41,632 nucleotides of DNA from a virus (lineage: Duplodnaviria > Heunggongvirae > Uroviricota > Caudoviricetes). Numbering within the stretch: the first letter of the stretch is position 1; each line of letters starts with the position of its first letter. The position numbers and the translations under genes are program-made. The stretch covers positions 1-41,632 of IMG/VR virus record IMGVR_UViG_2547132279_000012. The stretch is one strand, 5' to 3'. Shown in pieces: positions 1,369 through 41,632 of this stretch. The notes below the pieces were generated by a model that was not told the origin of the DNA, did no database searches, and saw only the letters and a program-made list of their open reading frames with translations.

Positions 1369-1444
1369 GCCGATATAGCTCAGTTGGTAGAGCAGCGCAT
1401 TCGTAATGCGAAGGTCGTAGGTTCGACTCCTATTATCGGCACCA
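1369..1444 (+). tRNA. thrW: tRNA-Thr (anticodon CGU), prophage attachment target
   Basis: 76 nt cloverleaf sequence GCCGATATAGCTCAGTTGGTAGAGCAGCGCATTCGTAATGCGAAGGTCGTAGGTTCGACTCCTATTATCGGCACCA with a CGT anticodon loop and 3' CCA; an integrase gene ends 15 bp downstream. Confidence 0.9.
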
Positions 1445-7633: not shown

Positions 7634-7894
7634 ATGCAATCACCATTACGAAATGTGCGTAAGACGCATGGTTTCACTTTGCAGCATGTTGCTGCGGGTG
7701 TTCAAGTCAATCCAGCGACGTTGAGTCGTATTGAGAGGCTGGAGCAGATTCCATCTATCGAGCTTGCAGAACGTTTAGCCAATTTTTTTAAGGGTGAAGT
7801 CAGCGAAATGCAGATTCTTTATCCGGCACGTTTTCAATCTAGCCAAAACCAGAATGGGTTTAAACCACAGGAACAGGAGGTGAACCGTGGGTAA
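7634..7894 (+). CDS. Cro/YdaS-like HTH regulator
   Basis: 86 aa with HTH motif (FTLQHVAAGVQVNPATLSRIER); divergent from cI. Confidence 0.7.
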   Translation: MQSPLRNVRKTHGFTLQHVAAGVQVNPATLSRIERLEQIPSIELAERLANFFKGEVSEMQILYPARFQSSQNQNGFKPQEQEVNRG

Positions 7895-8438
7895 GCATCA
7901 CTGGAAAGTAGAAAAACAGCCTGAGTGGTACGTGAAAGCTGTCAGAAAAACTATCACAGCGTTGCCGGGGGGTTACGCTGAAGCTGCTGACTGGCTGGAT
8001 GTAACAGAGAACGCATTATTTAACCGCCTTCGTACCGATGGCGATCAGATTTTCCCGCTGGGATGGGCAATGATTTTGCAACGTGCTGGTGGAACTCACT
8101 TCATTGCTGACGCTGTGGCGCAGTCTGCAAATGGCGTCTTTGTGTCTCTTCCTGATGTCGAGGATGTGGACAACGCCGATATCAACCAACGCCTGCTGGA
8201 GGTCATTGAACAGATCGGCAGTTATTCAAAACAGATTCGTTCAGCAATTGAAGACGGTGTAGTGGAACCGCATGAGAAGACAGCAATTAACGACGAGCTG
8301 TACCTCTCAATTTCGAAGCTGCAGGAGCATGCAGCACTGGTCTACAAAATTTTTTGCATTTCAGAAAGTAATGACGCCCGCGAGTGTGCAGCTCCGGGCG
8401 CCGTGGCGTGTCGTGACTGTGGAGAAACTAACGCATGA
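7887..8438 (+). CDS. CII/YdaT-like early regulatory protein
   Basis: 183 aa ORF immediately after cro, overlapping start/stop; family assignment is from recall only. Confidence 0.45.
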
Positions 8439-8773
8439 ATAGTTTAACAACACACTACCGTCGCTCGCAACTGATTGCGCTTCCTGTACCGGGTGGAAAA
8501 GCGAAGGTGGAGTATTGCTATGCAGTAAATGTACCAGGTGGCAGGGTAATTGTAACCCACAGCTTTGCAGAGTGGGCTGTGGGTGATTTTAACCGGCAAA
8601 AGGAGACAGTCCTTTGCGACAAGTTAACCGCTGGTTCAAAGATCACTACGGAGTACCCGTCAGAGTCATTCGTTGGGAGCCGGAAACACAACGGGTTATC
8701 TACCTCCGCGAAGGCTATGAGCATGAATGCTTCAGTCCGCTCGAACAGTTTCGTCGTAAATTCAGGGAAATAG
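8435..8773 (+). CDS. Hypothetical protein; C-terminal half looks non-protein-like (possible frameshift, see findings)
   Basis: N-terminal roughly 57 aa protein-like; downstream S/T/N-rich translation while the -1 frame reads as a plausible protein to 8793. Confidence 0.3.
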
Positions 8774-8782
8774 AGGTCGGTC

Positions 8783-16480: not shown

Positions 16481-17341
16481 ATGCAAAACGTACAGCCGCT
16501 ATCTCTGGTAACTACTTTAGTAATTTTGAGGTCTAATGGAGAGTCAAAGTCGTTAGGTACTGGGTTCTTTTATCAACATAGCAATGGTTTCATTTTCCTT
16601 GCAACTAACTATCATGTAATAACTGGAATCAGCCCATCCGAAAGGGGTGTAAAGCCATTTATAGGCGATAGTATTGATATTCAGCTGAGAGATAAAACCG
16701 GAAAACTATTCAAACATACGATGCCTCTGTTTAAAGATGGTTCACCGCTGTGGTTGGAGCACCCCACAGATAAAGAGGCAGACATTATCTTGATGCCTTT
16801 GCCTCAAGAGTTGTTTGTAAACACAGGAGTAAAAGTAGTCTCAAAAACAACGACACTGCCTAATGTCCAGATAAACCCCTCATCTCCTGTTGTAATGATT
16901 GGATATCCTCATGGTTATCATGACACGACTCACTACCTTCCAATATGGAAAACAGGAAGCTTAGCGAGTGAGCCAGATATCGATTTCGATGGGAAGAAAT
17001 TAATAGTTGTCGATATTTCTGCTTTCCCTGGAATGTCAGGCTCTCCGGCATTCTATGTCACGCACAGTGGTTATCTTACAAAAGAAGGGAATATGATCAT
17101 GGATATGGGAATGAAAATTCATTTCCTTGGCGTTTATGCAAGTATGCAAATGCTAAACAGTGATCTTTTCTTAGAACAAGTCGTTAGTGCTGCAGAATAC
17201 AAAGTGTCGCATAGTGAATCTTTGCAACTAGGGCATGTCTGGAAAGCTGAGTTACTTGAAGAGATAGCTGCGACATCTAGTCCGATTGCAACCACACCAT
17301 CTCAATTTCAAAGTAATAGCAAATTCTTATTTAAGTACTGA
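16481..17341 (+). CDS. Trypsin-like (S1/chymotrypsin-fold) serine protease, cytoplasmic, AT-rich moron
   Basis: Catalytic triad context: His in TNYHVITG, Asp in EADIILMP, Ser in GMSGSPAF; no signal peptide; start could also be 16430 or 16472. Confidence 0.7.
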   Translation: MQNVQPLSLVTTLVILRSNGESKSLGTGFFYQHSNGFIFLATNYHVITGISPSERGVKPFIGDSIDIQLRDKTGKLFKHTMPLFKDGSPLWLEHPTDKEADIILMPLPQELFVNTGVKVVSKTTTLPNVQINPSSPVVMIGYPHGYHDTTHYLPIWKTGSLASEPDIDFDGKKLIVVDISAFPGMSGSPAFYVTHSGYLTKEGNMIMDMGMKIHFLGVYASMQMLNSDLFLEQVVSAAEYKVSHSESLQLGHVWKAELLEEIAATSSPIATTPSQFQSNSKFLFKY

Positions 17342-36485: not shown

Positions 36486-37018
36486 TATGCAGCCCTCACA
36501 ATATAGTTAAATGCAATATTCCTTGGTCGAACCCTAAAACCAGCCCCTGCGCCTGCTCCAATTGGTGGCAATTCGATAGAGGGGTATGCTGTTGCAGGGG
36601 AATATAAACCTTCACGGGAATCATAATCAGTCGTCATATAGTTAGACGTATTATCAGAAACAGTTTCTGTCGGTCTGGTAACCAGACGATAAGAGCCAGT
36701 GGTTGGTGACCTGACCAGACCAAAACTTTCAACCAGAGTGGCTTTTTGAAAGCTTAATAATCCCCGACCACTGTCAGCTCCACGCCCGTCATCCCAGCCA
36801 CGAATAAACTCACCACGTAAATCAGGCAATTTATTTGTCGGATAAGCCTTTGCCAGTTCCGGGTATTCTTCAGCAGAAAAAGCTGCACCGTTGCATTTCA
36901 GCCAGCCTGTCGGCGGAGTGGCTGAAGGCCATGGAACAGGGACACCAACAGGTAATGCCGAACCTTCTCCCAAACCAACGTTTATGAAAATGCAGAAATA
37001 ACGAGCAAATGGCATCAT
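36485..37018 (-). CDS. Alternative tail-fibre variable C-terminal cassette (silent in this orientation)
   Basis: Receptor-binding-type motif (PTGWLKCNGAAFSAEEYPELAKAY); crossover site at its FINVGLGE codons; no own promoter expected. Confidence 0.7.
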   Translation of the reverse strand: MMPFARYFCIFINVGLGEGSALPVGVPVPWPSATPPTGWLKCNGAAFSAEEYPELAKAYPTNKLPDLRGEFIRGWDDGRGADSGRGLLSFQKATLVESFGLVRSPTTGSYRLVTRPTETVSDNTSNYMTTDYDSREGLYSPATAYPSIELPPIGAGAGAGFRVRPRNIAFNYIVRAA

Positions 37019-37044
37019 TCCTGCTTTTGTCAGAGGGATCCACT

Positions 37045-37599
37045 ATGCTTATTGGCTATGTACGCGTATCAACAAATGACCAGAACACCGATCTACAACG
37101 TAATGCGTTGAACTGTGCAGGATGTGAGCTGATGTTTGAAGACAAGATAAGCGGTACAAAGTCCGACAGACCAGGACTGAAAAAGCTGCTCAGGACACTA
37201 TCGGCAGGTGACACGCTGGTGGTCTGGAAACTGGACCGACTGGGGCGCAGTATGCGGCATCTTGTCGTGCTGGTGGAGGAGTTGCGCGAACGAGGCATCA
37301 ACTTTCGTAGTCTGACGGATTCAATTGATACCAGTACCCCAATGGGGCGCTTTTTCTTTCATGTGATGGGTGCCCTGGCTGAAATGGAGCGTGAACTGAT
37401 TGTTGAACGAACAAAAGCTGGACTGGAAGCTGCTCGCGCACAGGGACGAATTGGTGGACGTCGTCCCAAACTTACACCAGAACAATGGGAGCAGGCCGGA
37501 CGATTAATTGCATCAGGCGTTCCTCGCCAGAAGGTGGCGATCATCTATGATGTTGGTATATCGACACTGTATAAGAAGTTTCCGGTCGGAGATAAATGA
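37045..37599 (+). CDS. Serine DNA invertase (Pin/Gin/Hin/Cin family)
   Basis: MLIGYVRVSTNDQNTDLQRNAL... resolvase/invertase N-terminus with catalytic Ser and C-terminal HTH; near-identical by recall to e14 Pin. Confidence 0.9.
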   Translation: MLIGYVRVSTNDQNTDLQRNALNCAGCELMFEDKISGTKSDRPGLKKLLRTLSAGDTLVVWKLDRLGRSMRHLVVLVEELRERGINFRSLTDSIDTSTPMGRFFFHVMGALAEMERELIVERTKAGLEAARAQGRIGGRRPKLTPEQWEQAGRLIASGVPRQKVAIIYDVGISTLYKKFPVGDK

Positions 37600-37637
37600 A
37601 ACCGTAGCACGTCGTATGCAAGAAGATCGTGCTGCGG
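37581..37637. repeat. Left copy of an imperfect direct repeat (about 35-45 bp, hairpin-containing) bracketing the GIY-YIG gene
   Basis: GAAACCGTAGCACGTCGTATGCAAGAAGATCGTGCTGCGG matches GAAACCCGTAGCCACGTCGTATGCAAGAACGTGCTACGA at 38611-38660. Confidence 0.5.
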
Positions 37638-37659
37638 TTTATGCTTATCACTTAAAGAC

Positions 37660-38529
<870 letters not shown>

Positions 38530-38610
38530 CTAAGCCTTTGAATTTACATAGTATAAAAAAGATACTTTTCCTCATAATGTGAATTAATTTTATGTTTCGT
38601 TTGATGATTG

Positions 38611-38660
38611 GACCGGTCTCGAAACCCGTAGCCACGTCGTATGCAAGAACGTGCTACGAC
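38611..38660. repeat. Right copy of the direct repeat bracketing the GIY-YIG gene
   Basis: See the left copy; lies in the promoter-side intergenic region of the minus-strand gene. Confidence 0.5.
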
Positions 38661-38906
38661 TGGCTGGTGAACTTCCGATAGTGCGAGTATTGAATGATTT
38701 CCAACTGTTATCGATTTTGCGTATTTTTTGCATGAGAGGATTTTTACCTCCTCCCACCGATCCTCCATGGCTTTACGCCAGTGTCTCTGGTCTGCTATGT
38801 ACCAGAAGCGGAAGTTGTGTCTGTTAGTATGATATTATAATTACACTCGCTTATAATAAGCCCACAATACAGATATAAAAATATCTCAACGCTTGGGAGT
38901 TAACAA

Positions 38907-39818
38907 ATGATTAACTTTACTGAAATTGATAGTGACGGTGAAGCCTGGGAGTCATTTGCCCGTGATTTTCTTGAAGAACTTGGCTTTTATATTGAATCCG
39001 CGCCAGATAGAGGTGCAGATGGAGGTAAAGATCTTTTAATCACAGAGCAATTGCAAGGTCAGTTAAATAAATATAAATTTCGTTGGCTTGTTAGCTGTAA
39101 ACATTATGCAACAAGTAAAAAATCAGTTTCAGAAAAGGATGAGATTAATATACAAGAACGTATTGATGGATTCAATGCCGACGGATTTATTGGATTTTAC
39201 TCAACACTGCCAAGTAGTGGTTTAAATTCAAGAATGACGCAATTAAAAGAGAATGGAAAAATAAAGGACTTTCGATTCTTTGATGGTAAATTAATTGAAA
39301 ATCACTTAGTCAGAATTGGTTACTCAAAACTACTCCTTAGATACTTTCCTGAGAGCTATAAAAAAATAAAACCCAAGCATTTGATTTTTGATAAGTACTT
39401 ACCTATAAAATGTGATCGTTGTGGAAAGGACTTAATAGAAAACCATCATGAAGAAAATTATGATGGCATTGTGTGCAATGCAGAGATCATACACGATGAC
39501 AAACCAAATGAGGTGATAGCGGTTTATTATGCGTGTAAAGGTGATTGTGATAAGCATTTTGAGGATTATTTTTGGAATGAATATAAAGCGATTACGAGAT
39601 GGCAGGATATAAGTGATCTAGCCATCCCATTATTCTATCTCAAATGGATTATGGGGACATTTAATGAACTTGAGTATGGAAGGAAAACATATACCAAAGA
39701 AGCCTTCAATAAAACAAAGGAGATAACATTAGCGCTATCTCAAATTGTTATGAGAGAAATGACAGAAAAAGAAAGAGAAAGAGTGATGGCTTTGAATTCA
39801 CTACCTGATTACATATAA
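38907..39818 (+). CDS. Mrr-cat-like PD-(D/E)xK nuclease-domain protein with C-terminal Cys-cluster domain
   Basis: FEEFARDFLEELGF...DRGADGGKDLLI...RWLVSCKHY matches the restriction-endonuclease (Mrr_cat) signature; CDRCGK...C...CKGDCDKH Cys cluster; very AT-rich. Confidence 0.65.
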   Translation: MINFTEIDSDGEAWESFARDFLEELGFYIESAPDRGADGGKDLLITEQLQGQLNKYKFRWLVSCKHYATSKKSVSEKDEINIQERIDGFNADGFIGFYSTLPSSGLNSRMTQLKENGKIKDFRFFDGKLIENHLVRIGYSKLLLRYFPESYKKIKPKHLIFDKYLPIKCDRCGKDLIENHHEENYDGIVCNAEIIHDDKPNEVIAVYYACKGDCDKHFEDYFWNEYKAITRWQDISDLAIPLFYLKWIMGTFNELEYGRKTYTKEAFNKTKEITLALSQIVMREMTEKERERVMALNSLPDYI

Positions 39819-40024
39819 ATTATATTTACTAACATTTGAACTAGCGCATCTTTGGTGCAGAGACACCACCATCTTGGGGACACTGTGAGGCCACTGGCTT
39901 CCCAACTTATCGTTATACAGGATAATAAGGTGCTCCAGGGTGGCTATGAACTTGATGTTACGTCTGCGATTTGCTCATAAGGGACAACCATACTCAAATC
40001 TCCCACATTGCAGGAGATTTGAGT

Positions 40025-40627
40025 ATGAACACGTCACCGTGGAACAAAGACCGTATCATCGGCCAAAAAAGACCACTTCAGATATCTCATATCTGGGGGA
40101 TCCGAATCCGGCTTGAACTGGAAGGTAAAACGCGCGATTTAGCTCAGTTCGATATGGTCCTGGACAGTAAGCTACGAGGCTGTGATCTGGTCAAACTCAA
40201 AGTATCTGATGTTGCATATGGTAGCTCTGCTTCAAGCAGAGCTACGGTGCTGCAACAGAAAACCGGTAGCCCTGTGCAGTTTGAGATAACCAAAGGGACA
40301 AGAGAAGCTGTTGCTGCATTGATAATGCTTGGCAATTTGCATAGTAAAGACTTCTTGTTTCGGTTTCTGGTCGGAACTAATCAGCTCATATCTACCCGGC
40401 AATACAACCGAATTTTTCATGGGTGGGTAGAAAAGCTTGGTCTCGAAGATTCGCTTTACAGCACTCATTCCATGAGAAGAACAAAACCTTACCTGATCTA
40501 CAAGAAAACCAAGAATCTTCGGGTGATCCAACTTCTGTTGGGCCATAAGAAACTGGAAAGCACAGTCCGTTATCTGGGTATTGAAGTAGATGATGTGTTA
40601 GAGATCTCTGAATCGATTGAAGTCTAA
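40025..40627 (+). CDS. Short tyrosine recombinase (catalytic domain only, about 200 aa)
   Basis: LRGCDL (Arg box), HSMRRT (H-x-x-R), LLGHKKLESTVRYL (His, Tyr); start taken at the ATG preceded by AGGAG inside a 13 bp inverted-repeat hairpin. Confidence 0.65.
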   Translation: MNTSPWNKDRIIGQKRPLQISHIWGIRIRLELEGKTRDLAQFDMVLDSKLRGCDLVKLKVSDVAYGSSASSRATVLQQKTGSPVQFEITKGTREAVAALIMLGNLHSKDFLFRFLVGTNQLISTRQYNRIFHGWVEKLGLEDSLYSTHSMRRTKPYLIYKKTKNLRVIQLLLGHKKLESTVRYLGIEVDDVLEISESIEV

Positions 40628-40750
40628 GGTTGTCAGGGCTGCAACAACAGCCCTGTGCCAGGAGTTGACACTGTTAGCATCGCGCTATGTTAATCTATGT
40701 TGAGCAGTTAAAAATGATAATGTAGTTTATATGGATAATCAGTTTATAGA

Positions 40751-41632
40751 GTGGGTGAGATGGAACTAGATGAAACACTTGAAGTTATCAAAAATAATTT
40801 TAGTAATAATCAGAAGAAACTATTTAAAAGGATTGAGCCAGCCACTAACCGTCAAGTAGCTATCGGTCTTATTAGTTTACAAGGAGTGGAAAAAACATCT
40901 CAGGCTGAGATAGAGGTAATTGCCGGCCTCATATCTCAGTTTAGTCCATTGGAAATCGATAGTTTTCAAAATTCACCACGACGAATAACTCTGAAAGGTC
41001 AATTCCCAAACGGACATATTGTTTATATCGAGCCTCAGTATAAGGTTGGCAATATAAACCCAAAAGCCCAGCCTTGGGCAATAGACCTTGTCCTTAGACT
41101 AAATAGATGGATTGGTCAAGATTTGGTTGAGATTGCTGCTATTGGCATCGAGTATGATGGCCACATAGCTCATTATGTGGAAAGTAAAATTAAGTCTACT
41201 TACAAGCGTGATGCAGTAATAACTAGTAACGAAGGATTTCAATCGATTAGGATCTCACCAGAACAATGGAAATCGTCTAAAGAGGATCTTAAGAAGGCAA
41301 TTAAAAAGTATTTTGAACATCACATAAAAAAAATTGAAAAAGTTCAACTAAGCACAATAAACGCCCAAAATTTCAACAATTTTATTTATGAAAATGAAAA
41401 TGAAGTGATATCCACTGTAACTTGCCCTTTATGTAATGGAAAAGGCAGTTTAGCGGGAGAAGATTGTCCGATCTGTAATGGAATGGGATCCGTAAAAAGA
41501 TATATTGCTGCAAAGGTGAATCTTTCTAATTATGAAAAATTCACTTGTCCTGACTGCAGGAATATAAAATTAGATTGCAGAACCTGCAATGGTGAAGGAT
41601 CAATTAGCAGAGAAAAAGCATTAGAAATGTAA
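40751..41632 (+). CDS. DUF559/Vsr-like endonuclease-fold domain fused to a DnaJ-type CxxCxGxG zinc finger
   Basis: AIDLVL...IGIEYDGHIAHYVESKIKSTYKRDAVITSNEGFQSIRISPEQW fits the DUF559 pattern (vD...iEvDG..H...D..RD..L..G..vlRf...e); C-terminal CPLCNGKGS, CPICNGMGS, CPDC, CRTCNGEGS; AT-rich. Confidence 0.55.
   Translation: MGEMELDETLEVIKNNFSNNQKKLFKRIEPATNRQVAIGLISLQGVEKTSQAEIEVIAGLISQFSPLEIDSFQNSPRRITLKGQFPNGHIVYIEPQYKVGNINPKAQPWAIDLVLRLNRWIGQDLVEIAAIGIEYDGHIAHYVESKIKSTYKRDAVITSNEGFQSIRISPEQWKSSKEDLKKAIKKYFEHHIKKIEKVQLSTINAQNFNNFIYENENEVISTVTCPLCNGKGSLAGEDCPICNGMGSVKRYIAAKVNLSNYEKFTCPDCRNIKLDCRTCNGEGSISREKALEM

Follow-up and report, generated by a model that had tools for sequence, protein, structure and literature searches.

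The last gene of a 41,632-nt virus record (IMG/VR IMGVR_UViG_2547132279_000012, positions 1 to 41,632; "the window" below means this whole stretch) codes for a fusion of a Vsr/DUF559-type nuclease fold and a C-terminal zinc module. Here, we describe this nuclease/zinc-knuckle gene, its relatives, and the E. coli prophage that carries it. We lean, with modest confidence, toward a candidate function as a stand-alone anti-phage (or anti-mobile-element) nuclease that travels as accessory cargo of mobile elements. A sequence-only reading of the window had proposed a Vsr/DUF559-type nuclease fold joined to a DnaJ-type cysteine-rich zinc module; a 26-sequence alignment, an AlphaFold2 model, structure comparison, and profile matches all bear out the fusion and show that it is conserved.

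The open reading frame (ORF) is on the + strand and runs from a GTG at 40751 or an ATG at 40760 to 41632, giving 293 codons from the GTG or 290 amino acids from the ATG. The ATG at 40760 is the RefSeq start, and homologues begin at an equivalent ATG; we therefore number residues in the 290-amino acid form. The TAA stop occupies 41630-41632, the final three bases, so the ORF does end at the window edge as had been noted. The protein is WP_000417871.1, named "hypothetical protein" in RefSeq, and an identical sequence is present on 319 public contigs. Its 90%-identity cluster includes Escherichia, Citrobacter, Morganella, and Pantoea, with "zinc finger-like domain-containing protein" as the best name. 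The guanine-cytosine (GC) content of the gene is 35.4%, compared with 54.4% for the prophage structural genes and 54.7% for chromosomal proA at the window start. A scan for promoters and terminators gave no convincing candidate for a promoter ahead of the gene, nor a + strand terminator past its stop, and an Rfam scan of 36000-41632 returned only a far-sub-threshold CssrB match.

The AlphaFold2 model, built from the 26-sequence alignment, has a mean predicted local distance difference test (pLDDT) score of 87.9. It is divided into four parts, comprising helices (residues 3-58), a five-stranded sheet with helices (65-165), a long helix (167-211), and a beta-rich C-terminal region (219-290). We assigned the following segments to the gene:

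40760..40939, + strand: N-terminal four-helix domain, residues 1-60 (model helices 3-12, 16-28, 31-38, and 48-58, pLDDT 89-97)
40940..41257, + strand: Vsr/DUF559-like PD-(D/E)xK nuclease core, residues 61-166
41258..41404, + strand: long single helix or stalk, residues 167-215 (model helix 167-211), then a short low-confidence linker
41405..41629, + strand: zinc module, residues 216-290 (DnaJ and anti-TRAP matches, alignment)
41423-41476, + strand: unit 1 of the zinc module, C222..C239, CPLCNGKG-x6-CPICNGMG, followed by the linker VNLSNYEKF
41546-41587, + strand: unit 2, shortened, C263..C276, CPDC-x6-CRTCNGEG

Mean pairwise identity among the 26 sequences is 52-53% for the N-terminal domain and core, 43% for the knuckles (37% when the cysteines are left out), and 37% for the stalk, the least conserved segment of the family. 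The N-terminal domain is conserved jointly with the core, even in relatives with no zinc module (P0045, P0046, and P0062). Residues Q93, D109, E131, Y132, D133, G134, H138, E141, K145, Y148, and R150 are invariant in the alignment, and D109, E131, D133, G134, and H138 remain unchanged in 26/26 sequences at identities reaching down to 31%. The codons for D109, E131, and H138 are at 41084-41086, 41150-41152, and 41171-41173, respectively. The DUF559/Vsr pattern reads D...E-x-D-G-x3-H...R-D...G-x3-R. The invariant core residues would correspond to the expected catalytic and structural positions of that pattern, an equivalence drawn from the motif and not from superposition.

The restriction-endonuclease-like alpha/beta core superposes on Vsr/DUF559 structures. 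The highest score in the structure comparison, 9.4, was to the "endonuclease-like protein" NGO0050 (3hrl), with 92/94 residues aligned, a root mean square deviation of 2.1 Å, and 21% identity. It was followed by FASTKD4 (FAST1-FAST2-RAP construct, 9gek; 8.5), the homing endonuclease I-Bth0305I (8.2), AbaSI (7.9), E. coli Vsr (7.8), Bax1 (7.8), and PvuRts1I (6.7). In a Pfam scan of the window protein, DUF559 itself was not among the matches. The MTES_1575 model covers residues 103-181 below threshold, at 21.4 bits against a gathering cut-off of 38.2, and reaches E<0.01 in 16/26 relatives. MTES_1575 is a "novel Vsr-REase" (restriction endonuclease) domain defined by Anantharaman et al. 2013 (PMC3710099).

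The zinc module contains eight cysteines arranged in four CxxC motifs (C222/225, C236/239, C263/266, and C273/276) and terminates in the tail SISREKALEM. Five of the cysteines are invariant in 26/26 homologues and three in 25/26, where the sole deviating sequence is C-terminally truncated. Four CxxCxGxG repeats had been claimed from the sequence. The four CxxC motifs are present, but only motifs 1, 2, and 4 are CxxCxGxG, and motif 3 is a bare CPxC in all homologues. The whole Pfam DnaJ_CXXCXGXG model (PF00684) aligns to the module with an E value of 2e-6, at 28.3 bits against a gathering cut-off of 32.7, and it matches 19/26 members at E<0.01. The NCBIfam DnaJ model places residues 215-292 on DnaJ ~134-213 (E 9.5e-8), far under the model cut-offs. 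Searched against the PDB, the family profile found the cysteine-rich (CR) domain of E. coli DnaJ (1exk, E 3.5e-6), full DnaJ (6jzb, all four motifs), anti-TRAP, and BSD2, while Foldseek matched anti-TRAP (3ld0) over 34 residues with a probability of 0.98. Weak matches limited to the knuckles were also seen to PHROG 127 "anti-termination protein Q-like" (E 2.7e-4) and to TIGR02642/PF27659.

The repeat unit is ~41 residues long and consists of CPxCxGxG-x6-CPxCxGxG followed by a linker x8-(I/V)DLSxY; the window protein has one full copy and one shortened copy. Other proteins carry the two-CxxC unit in 2, 3, 6, or 7 copies, and one 105-amino acid protein consists of it as a stand-alone form. The 10-residue inner spacing of the knuckle is identical to that of the single Cys4 site of anti-TRAP. 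The module is thus better described as two tandem anti-TRAP-like two-CxxC knuckles than as the canonical four-repeat DnaJ central domain that the sequence-only reading had named. Zinc ligation by motifs 1+2 and 3+4, as independent knuckles, is more likely than the interleaved 1+4 and 2+3 arrangement of DnaJ, because of the odd copy numbers elsewhere and the anti-TRAP-identical inner spacing. We also considered whether the protein is a true DnaJ paralogue and rejected this, as Pfam and NCBIfam scans found neither a J domain nor the DnaJ C-terminal domains. The known relatives of such knuckles bind proteins: the DnaJ CR domain binds its substrates, anti-TRAP binds TRAP, and BSD2 binds Rubisco.

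A word-indexed search returned 31 clusters of full-length relatives, with identity down to 31%, from Vibrio, Photobacterium, Pseudomonas, Pseudoalteromonas, and Delftia. A profile search run exhaustively over 1.84 billion representatives yielded 217 proteins at E<=1e-3, which fall into four groups:

Group 1: ~35 full-length clusters
Group 2: proteins that share the N-terminal domain and core and have different C-termini (~240-amino acid forms, P0046 with 362 amino acids, and P0112 with 332)
Group 3: many proteins of 350-570 amino acids that match via at least two knuckle stretches
Group 4: small knuckle-only proteins

Seven paralogues (P0045, P0046, P0062, P0081, P0112, P0134, and P0161) keep the N-terminal helical domain and the E-Y-D-G-H core and have the zinc module swapped for unrelated tails of 40-150 residues. 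Neither the group 2 proteins nor these replacement tails have a Pfam or PADLOC match. We inspected five proteins of group 3 (P0047, P0053, P0131, P0137, and P0070), all of which have an HNH or HNH-like N-terminus, a helical region, and 2-7 knuckle units. In some HNH proteins, the matches reach back to profile positions 156-190, which indicates that the stalk travels with the zinc module. P0047 (536 amino acids) is an HNH nuclease with seven tandem knuckle units found on two metagenome contigs (L013 1308-2918 and L014 449-2059); its gene overlaps a 124-amino acid upstream ORF and has genes for an integrase and a 1573-amino acid AAA_22 protein alongside. In P0137, units 2 and 3 are identical, and identical units within HNH-knuckle proteins suggest recent repeat expansion.

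The only PADLOC match of the window protein was to PDC-M01B, sub-model PDLC04253 (E 6e-15), and aligned residues 179-292 with profile positions 269-362 of 366. We rejected membership of PDC-M01B, since the match is confined to the zinc tail of one sub-model. That tail is absent from most PDC-M01B sub-models, and the window protein has no HNH match in Pfam. P0131 is a genuine member, with at least 25 sub-models matched over its HNH body. The alignment points instead to a portable stalk-plus-knuckle module that the window protein and this one sub-model have in common.

The gene is present in 8/5,426 complete E. coli genomes, at 99.4-100% identity, and at six loci in the one-per-species GTDB representatives (185,579 species genomes). 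Among plasmids, the one tblastn match was a 69-residue stretch of the knuckles in a Methylobacterium replicon. We inspected ~12 loci, and the contexts outside E. coli were as follows:

L003 and L004, V. parahaemolyticus: chromosomal integron arrays
L010, Photobacterium phosphoreum: first gene adjoining a divergent integron-type integrase
L011, V. splendidus: P2-like prophage, between gpA/Ogr and portal, a position that we take to be the old/tin slot of P2
L023, 90-kb metagenomic contig: P7-type C1 repressor domain and integrase, possibly a P1-like phage-plasmid
L008, Delftia: prophage end, adjoining a 1257-amino acid protein matched along its whole length by PD-Lambda-4_A (E = 0)
L024, metagenome: SIR2 protein (ThsA/LmuA-like, E 2e-27) and ParA-like ATPase as neighbours
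L018, Pseudomonas sp. ML96: PDC-S31 (DUF2971) and a DUF6602/NucC-like PD-DExK protein come next
L019, Pseudomonas metagenome-assembled genome (MAG): adjoins an Mrr_cat protein and a 1179-amino acid patatin-like protein
L020, Gilliamella MAG: island with PDC-M15A
L005-L007, P. aeruginosa: variable island with HEPN_RiboL-PSP and BrnT
L017, Halomonas: directly past guaB-guaA
L012, Pseudoalteromonas: uninformative context

In L004, no other ORF accompanies the gene (8001-8855) between the attC-like repeats at 7806-7931 and 8857-8984, which are 123-129 nt long and belong to a family of 17-23 copies. The Vibrio homologue is an integron gene cassette, with one ORF flanked by attC-type repeats in an array of shared orientation. 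The taxa have no conserved neighbour in common; the gene thus travels, and presumably acts, on its own.

The prophage in the window and its cargo are laid out as follows:

1-1254: proA, chromosomal
1369..1444, + strand: tRNA-Thr(CGT), attL side of the prophage, presumably thrW
1459-2622, - strand: integrase
through ~37000: tailed prophage
13181-14738, - strand: PADLOC candidate pair PDC-M53B (E 2e-42) and PDC-M53A (E 2e-32)
16430-17341, + strand: PDC-S45 match (PADLOC, E 6e-42)
37009-37599: Pin-type invertase
37600-41632: AT-rich 4-kb cargo block
37660..38484, - strand: PD-T4-3 / CMoRE (PADLOC E 2.8e-140 over the full length; Pfam LEM-3_GIY-YIG)
38907..39818, + strand: 303-amino acid protein, Mrr_cat restriction-endonuclease domain (E 2.3e-5) at the N-terminus and C-terminal half rich in Cys/His
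39971..40627, + strand: small tyrosine recombinase, catalytic domain only, 200 amino acids in RefSeq

The cargo block thus runs from PD-T4-3 through the Mrr_cat protein and the recombinase to the nuclease/zinc-knuckle gene. We followed the region past the window edge in complete genomes, where it had been suspected that downstream partners might be missed beyond 41632. In strain E275a (L001), the 3' half of the tRNA is repeated as attR at 16337-16385, 300-350 bp past the stop, and the chromosomal pao genes come after attR. The nuclease/zinc-knuckle gene is therefore the last gene of the prophage and has no downstream partner. In strain APEC 102026 (L002, 13539-13874 onward), the pao genes are replaced by a truncated Arm-domain integrase, a MarR regulator, and a vat autotransporter disrupted by an insertion sequence, which is a decayed second (tandem) island at the same tRNA-Thr site.

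The PD-T4-3 / CMoRE gene is at the right end of the prophage, directly past the Pin invertase. CMoRE is a characterised single-gene type IV GIY-YIG restriction nuclease dependent on 5-hydroxymethylcytosine or its glucosylated form (5hmC/5ghmC), with an N-terminal nuclease and a C-terminal sensing domain (PMC12923530, PMC12366544). The 303-amino acid Mrr_cat protein had no PADLOC match and is a further, unclassified defence candidate. A RefSeq-annotated 81-bp internal fragment of a capsid gene lies between these two genes (~38645-38725; L001 13046-13126), a hint that another element has decayed to leave the cargo block. The prophage also has a second AT-rich island, with 32-37% GC at 13001-15000, which encodes the PDC-M53B/PDC-M53A pair. 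Given this pair and the PDC-S45 match, the prophage carries several defence candidates.

The recombinase has the appearance of a mini-recombinase by which variable accessory slots are marked or moved. Its DNA occurs at ~90-95% identity in 905/5,426 complete E. coli genomes at many loci, including 42 places on plasmids, and the homology stops ~35 nt past its stop codon, just upstream of the nuclease/zinc-knuckle gene. It is flanked by different cargo each time (L015, L025-L028): a dynamin-family pair, a CBS-domain protein, an ETEC_3214-family protein, Qin/Rac-type prophage hypotheticals by hokD, and DUF5677 between tail-fibre assembly and tail sheath genes of a P2-like prophage. We considered the Mrr-like gene, the recombinase, and the nuclease/zinc-knuckle gene as one system and rejected this, as no locus outside E. 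coli keeps those neighbours.

Several observations argue for a defence nuclease. The acidic and histidine constellation (D109, E131-x-D133-G, H138, and K145) is intact and invariant. The gene is carried as a single, horizontally mobile unit in slots that hold defence genes, and it is rare, patchy, and foreign in composition (GC 35% against 54%). The core occurs with alternative C-termini and the knuckle module occurs behind HNH nucleases, a shuffling typical of defence proteins. The genomic contexts fit the link to defence that the sequence-only reading had raised. Other points weigh against this function. The neighbourhood evidence is anecdotal, as it comes from ~12 loci with no background control. 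Both domain matches of the window protein, nuclease and zinc, fall under the Pfam gathering thresholds, and PADLOC has no model for the family, its sole match being the zinc tail of an HNH family. A tblastn search of 50,697 deposited phage genomes found no homologue, so only a few loci underpin its carriage by P2-like and P1-like elements. Furthermore, known DnaJ-type and anti-TRAP knuckles bind proteins and not DNA.

If the protein is such a nuclease, the core would cut DNA with Mg2+ as cofactor, like Vsr, I-Bth0305I, and AbaSI, and the stalk and zinc-knuckle module would target or gate it. This module may recognise a protein made by the phage, or a DNA structure or modification that is out of the ordinary, and thereby confine cutting to infected cells or foreign DNA. 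The 45-residue helix could serve as a stalk for dimerisation, and the stalk and knuckles together may assemble the enzyme into the dimer needed for double-strand cutting. Because the characterised relatives of the knuckles bind proteins, the balance tilts toward protein sensing or oligomerisation over DNA binding for the tail. As neither a methyltransferase nor an antitoxin accompanies it, the enzyme must leave self-DNA intact either through a substrate requirement or through autoinhibition. The former would follow type IV-like logic, as in the neighbouring CMoRE, and the latter, with inhibition released on infection by a phage product, would follow abortive-infection logic. Both routes are plausible, and we do not strongly prefer either. 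A broader and more tentative idea, which we hold to be possible but doubtful, is that bacterial immunity has, in the ~41-residue knuckle on its stalk, a new and portable module for sensing or targeting, fused independently to Vsr-like and HNH folds. Present in 2-7 copies and also free-standing, it might then mark out "zinc-knuckle nucleases" as a class so far without a name, in which the array detects a phage protein or a feature of DNA.

A more specific version of the defence function is that of a strict type IV enzyme, a sub-case with a defined substrate, in which cutting falls to the Vsr-like domain and the C-terminal module recognises a modified base, such as hydroxymethylcytosine (hmC), glucosyl-hmC, a Mu mom-type base, or deazaguanine. 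We consider this unlikely. The protein is one polypeptide with no methyltransferase and adjoins the single-gene type IV enzyme CMoRE, whose nuclease-plus-sensor layout it shares, as such a version would have it, but two hmC-specific enzymes side by side would be redundant. The C-terminus is a Cys4 knuckle pair and not an SRA-like or other known modified-base reader, and its characterised relatives (DnaJ CR, anti-TRAP, and BSD2) are protein binders. Still less probable is a selfish nuclease, either a free-standing homing-type endonuclease or an addiction-module toxin that stabilises the mobile element and does not protect the host. The I-Bth0305I-like fold, matches in BFVD to a "VSR homing endonuclease" and to phage DUF559 proteins, and the constant location of the gene in mobile DNA would all agree with a selfish role. 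At the inspected loci, however, the gene is never in an intron or intein and interrupts no conserved gene, its insertion site is different in each taxon, and no antitoxin-sized partner is conserved alongside it. It is also absent from the deposited phage genomes searched, where homing endonucleases abound.

The least probable reading, in our view, is a catalytically silent or non-defence protein that retains the nuclease fold and serves, for instance, as a regulator binding DNA or as a factor in the phage life cycle (Q-like or CHP02642-like). For many DUF559 proteins no activity is known, and the zinc module does match PHROG 127 and, weakly, TIGR02642/PF27659, but the Q-like matches are limited to the knuckles. 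The invariance of the putative catalytic residues in 26 sequences, down to 31% identity, argues against a silent protein, and the gene also occurs as an integron cassette and in chromosomal islands with no surrounding phage.

If the protein does protect against phages, it would be a compact 873-bp single-gene defence of a type outside the PADLOC release searched (2.0.0), which has no model for the family. As the recognition module is common to a larger HNH set, solving one member would explain others. The knuckle arrays raise the questions of what a DnaJ/anti-TRAP-like zinc site recognises in immunity and whether copy number tunes specificity. Furthermore, the gene would add defence cargo to the thrW prophage of clinical, bovine, and avian E. 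coli, which is relevant to forecasts of phage susceptibility.

Defence by a single protein that fuses a nuclease to a recognition domain is a well-known kind of system; the nuclease-plus-knuckle architecture itself appears undescribed. Full-text literature searches gave no description of a Vsr/DUF559-type nuclease with a DnaJ-type zinc-knuckle, and an integron-defence preprint mentions no such protein. The sequence-only reading had called the combination unusual and undescribed; the second part agrees with these searches, but a nuclease joined to the zinc module is not unique, since HNH nucleases carry the same stalk-plus-knuckle module. The closest known nucleases are those of the DUF559/Vsr family (NGO0050 3hrl, E. 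coli Vsr 1cw0, the MTES_1575 REase domain, and I-Bth0305I), to which the window protein adds its own conserved N-terminal helical domain, a long stalk, and the zinc module. Its rarity and its carriage by mobile elements set it apart from housekeeping repair enzymes. Homing endonucleases of the I-Bth0305I type are placed in an intron or intein or in a conserved target gene, whereas this gene is free-standing in the ~12 inspected loci.

With the DnaJ CR domain (PF00684) and anti-TRAP (RtpA), the protein has the CxxCxGxG motifs in common, aligning to all four motifs of DnaJ 6jzb and with Cys4 spacing identical to that of anti-TRAP. Unlike DnaJ, it has no J domain and no DnaJ C-terminal domains, its motif 3 has no GxG, and its unit behaves as an independently repeatable two-motif knuckle. 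PDC-M01B (PDLC04253) and the HNH-knuckle proteins have the same order of nuclease followed by knuckles, the stalk, and the CPxCxGxG-x6-CPxCxGxG "iDLSxY" unit, with profile E values down to 1.5e-52. They differ in having HNH and not PD-(D/E)xK nucleases and 2-7 units compared with two here, and PDC-M01 is a multi-gene candidate, whereas the window gene is solitary. In overall layout, the protein is like AbaSI and PvuRts1I, which have a Vsr-like nuclease as its core does, and like CMoRE, its neighbour in the same prophage: one chain, with an N-terminal nuclease, a C-terminal recognition domain, and no methyltransferase. AbaSI/PvuRts1I-type enzymes pair the Vsr-like nuclease with an SRA-like modified-cytosine reader, which the window protein lacks. 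Its putative recognition part is a Cys4 knuckle pair on a helical stalk, in place of the SRA-like or CMoRE sensing domain.

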